From contig JAUCBJ010006518.1 of assembly GCA_032718475.1 (NCBI GenBank), positions 1 through 64,000 on the forward strand: a stretch of 64,000 nt of DNA, read 5' to 3'. Origin of the DNA: Nemertoderma westbladi (Eukaryota > Animalia > Xenacoelomorpha). The notes under the pieces were generated by a model. That model saw only the letters and a program-made list of their open reading frames with translations, was not told the origin of the DNA and ran no database searches. Of the stretch, positions 21,301 through 51,300 are shown piece after piece (position 1 is the stretch's first letter; every line of letters begins with the position of its first letter). The position numbers and the translations under genes were made by a program.

Positions 21301-24300
21301 TTTAATCCGTTTAAGCTGAAACTTGGGAAGTATGTACTAGACCATTAGCTGTAAATTTCAAAGGAGGCTAATCTGTCTGCAGTTCTCCAGTCTGCCGCTA
21401 GAGGGCGAAATGTCCCGAATGTGAAATTATTCTTCCATTTAGTTGTTTATGATCTGATTACGCTGAAACTTGTCATATATGTACTAGAAGACATCCTAAG
21501 TCTTTGTGTGGACAGTAATCGGTCCGGAGTTTTCGAGTCTGCCGCTAGAGGGCGAAATGTAGGAAAGTGATAACCTTTGCGAATTCCTTGATCTTAATCT
21601 ATTTAAGCTGAATTTTGGAATATACAGTACCGGTATGTACTAGACCACATGCCTCGTCTTTGTGAGGAAGGTGATCGATCCGTAGTTCTTTAATATGCCG
21701 CTAGAGGGCTAAATGTATGAAAGTGAAAACCTTCCAACATTTCGTTATTTATGATCCGTCAATCGGAAACTTGGTAGATATGTAATAGACCATAGGATGT
21801 GGCTTTGTAGGGAAACTAATCCTTCCTTCTTCAGTTACCCAGTCTCCCGCTAGAGGGTTAACGTTTTCCGGGAAAATCTTCTCCTATGTTTTTATAATCC
21901 TTTCGAGTTGATACTTAGCATTAACTCATTTCACGTGCTGCGCGAAGGCCCCACTTCGTGTTGTGTTAGAATCTTACGTATTTAAACCATATCCCAGAAT
22001 ATAGTGTTAATGAGATTGCATGAAATTTGAAACAGAGATAGTTTCATTCAACTCCTCTTGGGTGGGTGAGCCAGAATTTTTATTTTTGCTTTCAATCTTT
22101 AGCTACAAACGTTTGAAAAAGGTGTCTCCAGCGATATTACACCAGTTACACCGCAGTTATTCTTCAACCTTATAGCTGTTTGTTGGTACCAATGGAAAGC
22201 TGGCCCTGCAAGGATTCCAAATATGTAACACAATGTGAATTTTGTTGCAAGAACAACTGAGATATGGGCGATCAAAAGTTGCATTGTTTTGCATCTGCGC
22301 TGGGCTATTTTATTATATTTAATAAATACAACAATCTGGAATATATTGTTTATCCAAATACGTAGCTGCGCAACAATGCATTACATCTTTAATCATACTA
22401 TTACGTAGCTATTCATACATTAATAAAATGGCCCAGAATATGGTGTATTTATTTACATGATTGATTATTGGATGTTTTGTTTATACATCAGTTAATATAT
22501 CGGCATTAGTTGTGTATATTCTATATATATATATATATATATATACTTTATTATATTGGTTTATTGTTTTAGTGGCTGCGGATCTTAATGAACAAATCGA
22601 TAATCTAAGGAGGGCTAAAACGTCGTTAGAGAAATCAAAGCAAGCTTCTGAAAATGAGAGTAAGGAGCAAGGGAAAGAAATACAGGCGTTAATACAGGTA
22701 GGGAGCAAGGGAAAGAAATACAGGCGTTAATATAGGTAGGGAGCAAGGGAAAGAAATACAGGCGTTAATACAGATAGGGAGCAAGGGAAGGAAATACAGG
22801 CTTTAATACAGGTAGGGAGCAAGGGAAAGAAATACAGGCGTTAATACAGGTAGGGAGCAAGGGAAAGAAAGAAATACTGGCGTTAATACAGGTAGGGAGC
22901 AAGGGAAAGAAATACAGGCGTTAATACAGGTAGGGAGCAAGGGAAAGAAATACAGGCGTTAATACAGGTAGGGAGCAAGGGAAAGAAATACAGGCGTTAA
23001 TACAGGTAGGGAGCAAGGGAAAGAAATACAGGCGTTAATACAGGTAGGGAGCAAGGGAAAGAAATACAGGCTTTAATACAGGTAGGGAGCAAGGGAAAGA
23101 AATACAGGCGTTAATACAGGTAGGGAGCAAGGGAAAGAAAGAAATACTGGCGTTAATACAGGTAGGGAGCAAGGGAAAGAAATACAGGCGTTAATACAGG
23201 TAGGGAGCAAGGGAAAGAAATACAGGCGTTAATACAGGTAGGGAGCAAGGGAAAGAAATACAGGCGTTAATACAGGTAGGGAGCAAGGGAAAGAAATACA
23301 GGCGTTAATACAGGTAGGGAGCAAGGGAAAGAAATACAGGCGTTAATACAGGTAGGGAGCAAGGGAAAGAAATACAGGCGTTAATACAGGTAGGGAGCAA
23401 GGGAAAGAAATACAGGCGTTAATACAGGTAGGGAGCAAGGGAAAGAAATACAATACAAGCGTTAATACAGGTAGGGAGCAAGGGAAAGAAATACAGGCGT
23501 TAATACAGGTAGGGAGCAAGGGAAAGAAATACAGGCGTTAATACAGGTAGGGATGGAAGCAAGGGAAAGAAATACAGGCGTTAATACAGGTAGGGAGCAA
23601 GGGAAAGAAATACAGGCGTTAATACAGGTAGGGAGCAAGGGAAAGAAATACAGGCGTTAATACAGGTAGGGAGCAAGGGAAAGAAATACAGGCGTTAATA
23701 CAGGTAGGGAGCAAGGGAAAGAAATACAGGCGTTAATACAGGTACGGAGCAAGGGAAAGAAATACAGGCGTTAATACAGGTAGGGAGCAAGGGAAAGAAA
23801 TACAGGCGTTAATACAGGTACGGAGCAAGGGAAAGAAATACAGGCGTTAATACAGGTAGGGAGCAAGGGAAAGAAATACAAGCGTTAATACAGGTTGGGA
23901 GCAAGGGAAAGAAATACAGGCGTTAATACAGGTAGGGAGCAAAGGAAAGAAATACAGGCGTTAATACAGGTAGGGAGCAAGGGGAAGAAATACAGGCGTT
24001 GATACAGATAGGGAGCAAGGGAAAGAAATACAGGCGTTAATACAGGTAGGGAGCAAGGGAAAGAAATACAGGCGTTAATACAGGTAGGGAGCAAGGGAAA
24101 GAAATACAGGCGTTAATACAGGTAGGGAGCAAGGGGAAGAAATACAGGCGTTAATACAGGTTGGGAGCAAGGGAAAGAAATACAGGCGTTAATACAGGTA
24201 GGGAGCAAGGGGAAGAAATACAGGCGTTGATACAGGTAGGGAGCAAGGGAAAGAAATACAGGCGTTAATACAGGTAGGGAGCAAGGGAAAGAAATACAGG

Positions 24301-48300: not shown

Positions 48301-51300
48301 ACAGGTAGGGAGCAAGGGAAAGAAATACAGGCGTTAATACAGGTTGGGGAGCAAGGGAAAGAAATACAGGCGTTAATACAGGTAGGGAGCAAGGGAAAGA
48401 AATACAGGCGTTAATACAGGTAGGGAGCAAGGGAAAGAAAAAATACAGGCGTTAATACAGGTAGGGATGGAAGCAAGGGAAAGAAATACAGGCGTTAATA
48501 CAGGTAGGGAGCAAGGGAAAGAAATACAGGCGTTAATACAGGTAGGGAGCAAGGGAAAGAAATACAAGCGTTAATACAGGTAGGGAGCAAGGGAAAGAAA
48601 AAATACAGGCGTTAATACAGGTAGGGAGCAAGGGAAAGAAATACAGGCGTTAATACAGGTTGGGAGCAAGGGAAAGAAATACAGGCGTTAATACAGGTAG
48701 GGAGCAAGGGAAAGAAATACAGGCGTTAATACAGGTAGGGAGCAAGGGAAGGAAAGAAATTCAGGCGTTAATACAGGTAGGGAGCAAGGGAAAGAAATAC
48801 AGGCGTTAATACAGGTAGGGAGCAAGGGGAGGAAAAAAATTCAGGCATTAATACATGGTACTAAGAAACAATAATGGTACTAACAAACAATAATGGTACT
48901 AACAAACAATAATGGTACTAACAAACAATAATGGTACTAACAAACAATAATGGTACTAATAAACAATAATGGTACTAATAAACAATAATGGTACTAACAA
49001 ACAATAATGGTACTAATAAACAATAATGGTACTAACAAACAATAATGGTACTAACAAACAAAAATGGTACTAACAAACAATAATGGTACTAACAAACAAT
49101 AATGGTACTAACAAACAATAATGGTACTAATAAACAATAATGGTACTAATAAACAATAATGGTACTAACAAACAATAATGGTACTAACAAACAATAATGG
49201 TACTAATAAACAATAATGGTACTAATAAACAATAATGGTACTAACAAACAATAATGGTACTAACAAACAATAATGGTACTAACAAACAATAATGGTACTA
49301 ACAAACAATAATGGTACTAACAAACAATAATGGTACTAATAAACAATAATGGTACTAACAAACAATAATGGTACTAACAAACAATGATGGTACTATAACA
49401 AACAATAATGGTATTAACAAACAATAATGGTACTAACAAACAATAATGGTACTAACAAACAATAATGGTACTAACAAACAATAATGAAACAATAATGGTA
49501 CTAAGAAACAGATGGTACTATAACAAACAATAATGGTAGTAACAAACAATAATGGTACTAACAAACAATAATGGTACTGACAGACAATAATGGTACTAAC
49601 AAACAATAATGGTACTAACAAACAATAATGGTACAAACAGACAATAATGTTACTAACAAACAATAATGGTACTAACAAACAATAATGGTACAAACAGACA
49701 ATAATGGTACTAACAAACAATAATGGTATTAACAAACAATAATGGTACAAACAGACAATAATGGTACTAACAAACAATAATGGTACTAACAAACAATAAT
49801 GGTACTAATAAACAATAATGGTACTAAGTAACAATAATGGTACTAACAAACAATAATGGTACTAACAAACAATAATGGTACTAACAAACAATAATGGTAC
49901 TAACAAACAATAATGGTACTAACAAACAATGATGGTACTAACAGACAATAATGGTACTAACAAACAATAATGGTACTAACAAACAATAATGGTACTAACA
50001 AACAATAATGGTACTAACAAACAATGATGGTACTAACAGACAATAATGGTACTAACAAACAATAATGGTACTATAACAAACAATAATGGTACTAACAAAC
50101 AATAATGGTACTAACAAACAATAATGGTACTAACAAACAATAATGGTACTATAACAAACAATAATGGTATTAACAAACAATAATGGTACTAACAAACAAT
50201 AATGGTACTAACAAACAATAATGGTACTAACAAACAATAATGGTACTAACAAACAATAATGGTACTAACAAACAATAATGGTACTATAACAAACAATAAT
50301 GGTATTAACAAACAATAATGGTACTAACAAACAATGGTGGTACTAACAGACAATAATGGTACTAACAAACAATAATGGTACTAACAAACAATAATGGTAC
50401 TAACAAACAATAATGGTACTAACAAACAATAATGGTACTAACAAACAATAATGGTACTAACAAACAATAATGGTACTATAACAAACAATAATGGTATTAA
50501 CAAACAATAATGGTACTAACAAACAATAATGGTAATAACAAACAATAATGGTACTAATAAACAATAATGGTACTAACAAACAATAATGGTACTAACAAAC
50601 AATGATGGTACTAACAAACAATAATGGTACTAACAAACAATAATGGTACTAACAAACAATAATGGTACTAACAAACAATGATGGTACTATAACAAACAAT
50701 AATGGTATTAACAAACAATAATGGTACTAACAAACAATAATGGTACTAACAAACAATAATGGTACTAACAAACAATAATGGTACTAACAAACAATAATGG
50801 TACTAACAAACAATAATGGTAATAACAAACAATAATGGTACTATCAAACAATAATGGTACTAACAAACAATGATGGTACTAACAAACAATAATTGTACTA
50901 ACAAACAATAATGGTACTAACAAACAATAATGGTACTAACAAACAATGATGGTACTATAACAAACAATAATGGTATTAACAAACAATAATGGTACTAACA
51001 AACAATAATGGTACTAACAAACAATAATGGTACTAACAAACAATAATGGTACTAACAAACAATAATGGTACTAACAAACAATGATGGTACTAACAAACAA
51101 TAATGGTACTAACAAACAATAATGGTAATAACAAACAATAATGGTACTATCAAACAATAATGGTACTAACAAACAATGATGGTACTAACAAACAATAATT
51201 GTACTAACAAACAATAATGGTACTAACAAACAATAATTGTACTAACAAACAATAATGGTACTAACAAACAATAATGGTACTAACAAACAATAATGGTATT

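Follow-up and report, generated by a model that had tools for sequence, protein, structure and literature searches.

In Nemertoderma westbladi a non-muscle myosin II heavy-chain gene is intact and spliced despite a 26-kb tandem array that begins inside exon E10 and repeats its donor hundreds of times. We regard the array as a probably neutral, very large donor-spanning minisatellite, tolerated because the first donor is probably the one to which splicing commits; the probability of this reading is put at roughly 0.78. The class of donor-spanning minisatellites (the F7 IVS7 or 'mirage' type) is already published, and in the available parts of those reports first-donor use is the rule. What is new is the size of the array and the presence of four donor-spanning cases in one gene. 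The features are given in Table 1 as positions in the window, the whole stretch of 64,000 nucleotides that was analysed (contig JAUCBJ010006518.1, forward strand).

Table 1. Positions of the myosin gene, its donor-spanning arrays and associated features in the window.
Feature	Position	Strand	Remarks
Non-muscle myosin II heavy-chain gene, 3' three quarters	215..61082	+	21 exons, 20 GT-AG introns
Sister array at E5 donor	2183..7313	+	37-bp unit; 136 later copies, of which 91 identical at -3..+6
Sister array at E8 donor	11317..11370	+	15-bp unit; small, decayed; 3 later copies, none identical
Exon E10	22573..22697	+	125 nt; supplies the repeat unit; authentic donor at 22698
38-bp tandem array	22660..48855	+	unit 0 inside E10, plus 673 copies
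In-frame stop	22728..22730	+	first intronic unit; 11th read-through codon
19-bp array	48850..51332	+	130 copies; abuts the 38-bp array
Exon E11	51729..51928	+	behind an ordinary pyrimidine-rich acceptor
Sister array at E15 donor	55261..55773	+	63-bp unit; 7 later copies, 5 identical

The myosin frame was open over 1,481 codons with no stop. Intron 10 measured 29,031 nt, and the E10-E11 junction was in frame and gapless against all 15 aligned homologs. The stop lies in the first intronic unit, so that any downstream donor would add a premature stop, and the full reading frame was kept from none of the 666 downstream GT copies. Two proposals of the initial annotation, that no donor but the first yields a collinear myosin and that read-through ends after 11 codons, were thus borne out. 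The E10 donor is among the gene's weaker ones, scoring fourth lowest of 20 with a matrix built from the other 19. Searching for homologs gave 74 hits among 7,971 candidates and 29 among 564; no close relative was found, the best match to the window's myosin being 57.7%. A tree of 29 proteins without an outgroup placed this long-branch myosin next to those of echinoderms and a hemichordate with a support of 0.94, a hint only. An ORF at 13263-14207, considered as 'RT-like', was rejected, having neither a Pfam match nor an atlas hit.

TRF called the array at 22660-48835 (period 38, 673.6 copies, 94% matches), and the final partial unit stops at 48855. The array had been described as about 680 decoy donors. 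Hundreds are indeed present, but 673 copies follow the first; GT is kept at 666 of these junctions and lost at 7. The unit had been equated with the last 38 nt of E10; the array does start within the exon, but its consensus differs from those 38 nt by a single mismatch, at base 22663. That every junction equals the true donor proved an overstatement, although the majority do: 629 of 673 are identical to it from -3 to +6. The identical upstream context amounts to 34 nt and is present in 410 of the 673 copies, while 388 are exact consensus units. Outside the array there is no occurrence of the donor 9-mer, and the repeated donors are therefore not due to chance. Their density is ∼51 sites per 2 kb (666 GT copies in 26.2 kb), and the last GT copy, at 48815, lies 2,914 nt from the E11 acceptor. 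Substitutions amounted to 0.7% per base; 43 of the 181 fell at the nine donor positions, the same rate as in the remaining unit, so that neither selection for the decoys nor selection against them is indicated. Folding of 304 nt (-32.8 kcal/mol, calculated with no shuffle control) revealed nothing notable.

Four sequencing runs were assessed as contigs of 31-letter words, in which rare forms drop out and summed depths are no measure of expression or copy number. X1 and X3 are DNA. X4 and X5 are labelled 'DNA?' but were read as RNA, because 0.47 of the words are present in them (the exonic share is 0.48) and because the GT-AG intron between E4 and E5 is skipped in both, with no depth on it, whereas X1 and X3 keep it. 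The ratio of array to single-copy depth was 355-454 in X1 and 560-1,480 in X3, where 439 consensus 31-mers were expected. The two ratios differ, and arrays of this class vary in copy number between individuals, but contig depth does not give copy number; in both DNA runs it fits hundreds of copies. The initial annotation had named a much shorter array in the reads, or an unexpressed locus, as the observations that would speak against it; depth is of the order of hundreds of copies, and spliced contigs exist. Inflation by the assembly of an array much shorter in the animal is barely credible given these ratios and the nested patterns formed by 58 distinct unit types. Blocks of up to 33 units have been re-duplicated, and one 33-unit block recurs exactly 87 units on, as inflation could produce; moreover, this assembly may have been built from X1 and X3. 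On the 37-bp array X1 depth was at most about 190 against 28.7, which may reflect a shorter allele or a hole left by filtering.

Spliced contigs of X4 and X5 place the start of E10 exactly at 22573, and an X4 contig with a loose end at 22698 continues from the end of E10 into E11. The one base by which copy 1 can be recognized is 35 nt upstream of the join, farther than a 31-letter word reaches, so the E10-E11 join cannot tell which copy was used. The sister arrays were more informative. One X4 contig (3,793 nt, depth 409) spans E3 to E10; its position 1477 corresponds to base 2199, as predicted, and no extra bases are present at the E5 and E8 donors. This contig shows that the first donor is used at the E5 (2200) and E8 sister arrays. 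The E5 rival donor at 2239 is identical to the true donor and in frame, and NMD could therefore not hide its use; neither a join nor depth indicating such use was seen in X4. That this rival is passed over favours choice at the level of splicing over clean-up by NMD; loss of transcripts to NMD, the other outcome in the earlier proposal, need not be heavy to account for the data. At the 38-bp array itself, X4 depth was 6.5 times exon depth as against 439 for a whole array, a rough bound only, which argues against the use of late donors. Exon contigs of X4 and X5 each hold one letter that differs from the window.

These results bear on the alternative that donor choice is leaky, many transcripts being spliced from a later copy, acquiring the stop at 22728 and being destroyed by NMD, so that array length would tune myosin output. 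The total loss of frame at later donors and the weakness of the true donor are in its favour, degraded forms would not be visible in contigs, and ABCA7 shows both retention of one unit and an effect of VNTR length on splicing in the available part of that report (PMC5954066). We nevertheless consider it unlikely, given the unused, NMD-blind second donor of the 37-bp array, decoy positions that are neither conserved nor eroded, and the F7 minigenes, in which later copies were unused according to the portion of the report available (PMC1557585).

Donor-spanning arrays account for 4 of 14 in this gene, in which tandem repeats make up 77% of intron DNA. Without the focal array the enrichment at donors was modest (3 of 13, P = 0.037; for two, P = 0.19), and the number of acceptor-side arrays in the gene, 0 of 14, was not significant (P = 0.39). 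All later E15 donor copies would bring in a stop.

Each 38-bp unit starts with GT and ends with AG, and AG precedes GT at every junction. Such units might act as ratchet points, the 29-kb intron being removed stepwise with each AG|GT step rebuilding an identical donor, and a mis-spliced insert being spliced out again exactly. The junctions fail as acceptors, however: they have no pyrimidine tract, with a median pyrimidine share of 0.32 and a maximum of 0.42, compared with 0.47-0.89 for the 21 genuine acceptors of the gene. In addition, the 37-bp and 63-bp sister units do not end in AG and their arrays are equally tolerated. Stepwise removal is thus highly improbable.

A view of the arrangement as new or puzzling is not supported: the same layout is known in F7, CBS, 6-16, LMNB2, PDGF, ABCA7 and amphioxus, and the myosin array belongs with them: its first unit spans the boundary, the donor is repeated, and the host gene is intact and spliced. 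The comparisons that follow hold for the parts of the cited sources that were available. In the human F7 intron 7 37-bp VNTR the first unit likewise spans the exon-intron boundary and is followed by identical pseudo-donors, of which only the most upstream of the identical donors was used in minigenes; first-donor use is thus demonstrated there, while at the 38-bp array it is a reading of the data. The F7 array has 5-9 units with four exon bases each, compared with 674 units and 34 exon bases here. Its introduction lists pseudo-sites in 6-16 (25), CBS (15-20), LMNB2 (10-15) and PDGF (16-18) (PMC1557585). The F7-type evidence was obtained in mammalian cells with arrays shorter than 400 bp, which counts against our reading. 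The human ABCA7 intron 18 25-bp VNTR, like the myosin array, starts at a donor and can comprise hundreds of units, its length ranging from 298 bp to 10,678 bp (about 427 units); its unit begins at the GT. Use of the next copy leads to a frameshift and NMD in ABCA7, and here it would bring in a stop; length effects on splicing are established there and are a candidate effect for myosin (PMC5954066). A further point against our reading is that ABCA7, CBS and 6-16 also splice from the one or two copies that follow the first (PMC5954066, PMC1557585).

The 38-bp array is 2.4 times longer than the longest ABCA7 allele but has merely 1.6 times its unit count (PMC5954066), so size does not make it a new category; it is the longest among the published examples compared, which are not a census. 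Amphioxus 'mirages', in Adh3, troponin C, globins and PGBD5, are also invertebrate tandem copies of exon-intron boundaries in several genes, with splicing reportedly undisturbed; they have few units each and include acceptor-side cases, in contrast to the myosin gene (PMC3087553, PMC3902484). Intron gain by tandem genomic duplication similarly involves head-to-tail duplication of a GT/AG-bounded exon segment, but in that model the intron runs from one copy's GT to the AG of the last copy (PMC3443670), whereas the working acceptor here (51728) is pyrimidine-rich, is found 2.9 kb beyond the array and does not coincide with the end of a unit. In the accessible portions of further literature, including PMC10078293, no closer precedent was found.

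A tolerated minisatellite could have originated when 34-38 bp spanning the end of E10 were duplicated locally. The exonic GT site at 22660 and the true donor are indeed alike at five of six bases (GTAAGG and GTAGGG), as the initial annotation had noted, and this likeness may have aided the founding duplication. Growth and homogenization would then have proceeded by slippage and unequal exchange, compatible with the low substitution rate and the re-duplicated blocks. The 125-nt E10 would be defined co-transcriptionally, its acceptor pairing with the closest donor downstream long before transcription has reached the real acceptor, 29 kb away. Donor copies beyond the first, having no acceptor of their own, would remain idle, and an occasional slip to copy 2 or 3 would carry the stop and be removed by NMD. 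Duplications would survive selection because the message stays intact through the first copy, and a repeat-prone genome would be expected to gather such arrays at donors.

The gene offers a strong natural test of first-donor choice: its authentic donor faces 666 rivals spread along 26 kb, and the final rival is ten times nearer to the acceptor than the authentic donor is. Exon definition or first-come commitment is separated from nearest-donor pairing far more sharply than by the 5-9-unit F7 array, and with four arrays providing in-frame and out-of-frame rivals, splicing choice and NMD clean-up become distinguishable in a single transcript.

In X5, which has spliced contigs, array depth was at least 100,000 compared with 54-82 on exons. 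This excess of 1,200-1,900 times, ∼2.8 times above the level expected from one whole array per exon, is not predicted by a silent passenger intron; no X5 depth was present on the unique intron stretch 22460-22571. Array RNA might therefore live independently, the nascent or excised intron holding U1 snRNP, lingering in the nucleus and accumulating. Chicken LL2R RNA, from a tandem array that is transcribed and in which donors (over five per 2 kb) far outnumber acceptors, as they do in the myosin array, gathers splicing factors, according to the part of the report available; its unit is non-coding and driven by a retrotransposon promoter, whereas the array here lies in the intron of a spliced coding gene, and nuclear retention and factor binding are putative (bioRxiv 10.64898/2026.03.19.712899). 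An independent life of the array RNA is very unlikely, as the X4 ratio was just 6.5, a 3'-biased or internally primed X5 library would look alike, and summed contig depths rank nothing and carry neither strand nor source locus. It is likewise quite unlikely that array RNA, with ∼670 putative U1 sites and, behind them, 89 branch-point-like heptamers, persists after splicing or stalls at the gene, builds up above myosin mRNA and forms a U1 sink or condensate from a housekeeping-gene intron, in a genome that repeatedly seeds arrays at donors. These heptamers, of the yeast branch-point type, lie in the 19-bp array together with 10 hexamers of the poly(A)-signal motif.

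Tandem Repeats Finder confirmed the 26-kb satellite that the initial annotation had described behind exon E10 of the myosin gene, returning a 38-bp period, 673.6 copies and 94% matches. Its unit matches, as proposed, the last 38 bases of the exon, apart from position 22663, the sole mismatch to the consensus. The suggested figure of about 680 decoy donors was right in magnitude but not in detail; 673 junction copies lie downstream of the first donor (22698), and 666 of them keep the GT. Nor is every junction the same as the true donor: 629/673 are identical to it at −3 to +6, while the rest differ, including seven that lack GT. 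The first-donor 9-mer (−3 to +6) was not found in the window outside the array, and the 34 bases upstream of the true donor are common to 410/673 copies. Exact units make up 388/673, substitutions run at 0.7% per base, and variant-rich blocks of 12 to 33 units recur at spacings of 52, 87 and 264 units. The array is therefore young or strongly homogenised, and grew partly by block duplication. Of 181 substitutions, 43 fall in the nine donor positions, in line with the mean rate although the counts are non-independent; the decoys thus seem to have been neither preserved nor eliminated.

The host gene encodes a non-muscle myosin II heavy chain; its 3' three quarters lie in the window and were modelled by exon coordinates as 21 exons, 20 GT-AG introns and 1,481 stop-free codons. 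The predicted protein aligned at 52–58% with the best-scoring homologs printed, and the junction between E10 and the next exon, E11, was gapless against all 15 aligned homologs. No close relative of this animal's myosin was present among the homolog matches; in a tree (no outgroup) its long branch lay next to echinoderms and a hemichordate (support 0.94). Read-through from E10 meets a stop at 22728, so none of the 666 later GT copies yields the full frame, and the claim that only the first donor gives a collinear myosin holds. Myosin II is essential, and such a stop in a spliced product would trigger nonsense-mediated decay (NMD). At 8 of the gene's 20 donors T at +3 is followed by A and G, the majority type here, and seven others depart from the textbook form in other ways; the T+3 type could be the signature of a lineage whose donor consensus is unusual.

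Four sequencing runs were examined as contigs with 31-letter words. In the DNA runs X1 and X3, which may be source data of the assembly, the ratio of array to single-copy contig depth, itself not a copy number, was 355–454 and 560–1,480 respectively, compared with 439 consensus 31-mers in the window. This speaks against an array much shorter in the raw reads, and inflation of a short array by the assembly is unlikely. X4 (sample and study different from the DNA runs) and X5 (sample label common to X1) have no RNA label on record and were read as RNA: the share of query words present was 0.47, against an exonic share of 0.48; the 301-nt GT-AG intron 4 was skipped in both and kept in X1 and X3; and contigs of both start exactly at the E10 acceptor. 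These spliced contigs argue against a silent locus. An X4 contig passes from the end of E10 into E11; the copy used is not readable from it because the telling base lies 35 nt upstream and contigs break in the repeat. Array depth in X4 was 6.5 times exon depth, whereas a kept array would give 439. By this rough bound, late donors are not the rule.

In X5, array depth was at least 100,000 versus 54–82 on exons, a 1,200–1,900-fold excess where the whole array would give 439; X4 showed no excess of this kind. The unique intron sequence directly before E10, where any library DNA should give coverage, had zero depth. Internal priming, or a library biased towards 3' ends, could yield the same excess. 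An abundant array RNA is a lead rather than a result, and we consider it very improbable.

From 31 Tandem Repeats Finder rows we retained 14 non-redundant in-gene arrays. Rows that overlapped on a single array were left out, as were a 3-bp repeat and one repeat beyond the stop codon. Together they make up 77% of the gene's intron DNA. Four span a donor (E5, E8, E10 and E15), where random placement predicts 0.9 (P = 0.006). Without the E10 array, P = 0.037 for three; with the decayed 15-bp case also discounted, P = 0.19 for two. None spans an acceptor, an absence that is not significant (P = 0.39). A single X4 contig of 3,793 nt spans E3 to E10, and its position 1477 corresponds to base 2199, exactly the modelled exon sum, so no extra bases were retained at the E5 or E8 donor. 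The second donor of the E5 array (2239) is in frame and identical at −3 to +6, which puts its product beyond the reach of NMD. Neither a join nor depth was seen there in X4, a statement about the main product, as contigs lose rare forms. These data favour choice during splicing over later clean-up.

Coordinates and properties of repeats and other features
Feature	Position	Remarks
38-bp array	22660–48835	final partial unit ends at 48855
37-bp array	2183–7313	E5 donor; strongly G-rich sense strand, GC skew 0.8–0.9, 380 G-runs
15-bp array	11317–11370	E8 donor
63-bp array	55261–55773	E15 donor
Intron 10		29,031 nt; 38-bp array, 19-bp array (130 copies), ~400 unique bases, ordinary acceptor
19-bp array	48850–51332	directly behind 38-bp array; ends ~400 nt before real acceptor
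24-bp array	59559–60956	last intron
Element	58564–59559	~1 kb; 22-nt terminal inverted repeats (91%)
Element	12132–12808	63-nt terminal inverted repeats (90%) around two opposed 17-bp arrays
Interspersed repeat	21900–22460	high-copy, just upstream of E10; X1 depth to ~300,000 vs 23–29 single copy
Open frame (−)	13263–14207	intron 9; 315 codons; no Pfam family, no atlas match
48-bp array	14507–18487	intronic; no link to splice sites
63-bp array	7923–9515	intronic; no link to splice sites
292-bp array	20661–21560	intronic; no link to splice sites
16-bp array	52105–52491	intronic; no link to splice sites

The 38-bp array has the same layout as the F7 intron 7 VNTR and, according to the list in the available part of the F7 paper (PMC1557585), as donor-spanning arrays in 6-16, CBS, LMNB2 and PDGF. 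This layout is shared by ABCA7 intron 18, with up to ~427 units (PMC5954066, in part), and by the amphioxus 'mirages' (excerpts of PMC3087553 and PMC3902484). Three defining features of donor-spanning minisatellites are present: a first unit across the exon-intron boundary, head-to-tail repetition of the donor, and an intact, spliced host gene. Two others, predominant use of the first donor and length polymorphism, may apply to this array. Judged by the criteria in the available portion of a review (PMC3443670), the array does not qualify as an intron born by tandem duplication. Our literature search, which was not a census, found no longer donor-spanning example; the layout being published, the novelty lies in the size and in four cases within one gene. 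The original observation is thus confirmed with small corrections, and its first interpretation is partly supported. Donor density is roughly tenfold the value stated for chicken LL2R RNA in the accessible text of bioRxiv 10.64898/2026.03.19.712899, where the gathering of splicing factors is described as a feature of LL2R.

The array was most likely founded by a short duplication across the end of E10 and would have enlarged by slippage and unequal exchange. The founding unit may have comprised 34 exon and 4 intron bases; alternatively, it may have been the exon's last 38 bases, with the GT at 22660 supplying the copies' donor and that at 48858 representing the older donor. Both options fit; unlike the 37-bp array at E5 and the 63-bp array at E15, the 38-bp array does not end in its own donor, which fits the second. 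Commitment to the first donor is likely to occur through definition of the 125-nt E10 during transcription, as suggested by the sister arrays and by F7 minigenes (PMC1557585, in part). Counting against this reading, the E10 donor score is the fourth lowest of the gene's 20, and the next one or two copies are reportedly used in CBS and 6-16 (PMC1557585, available part) and in ABCA7 (PMC5954066, likewise). The excess array depth in X5 weighs on the same side. Stepwise intron removal at ratchet points is very unlikely: the junctions fail as acceptors, with a pyrimidine share of at most 0.42 versus 0.47–0.89 at 21 real acceptors.

Depth on the 37-bp array fits ~90 copies in X3 and is low in X1, where it would mean either a gap in the data or an allele with fewer copies. 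The 19-bp array carries 89 perfect copies of the yeast-type branch-point heptamer (4 elsewhere in the window) and 10 poly(A)-signal hexamers; speculatively, it could represent an older repeat located at the 5' end of the same intron. Branch-point-like pentamers number 53 in the 24-bp array, and 30 nt separate the final one from the acceptor, so the array seems to repeat a branch point without its AG. Array-like sequence also flanks the other side of the adjoining ~1-kb element, as if the element had inserted into the 24-bp repeat. The element enclosing the opposed 17-bp arrays is, from its structure, a putative foldback- or MITE-like element.
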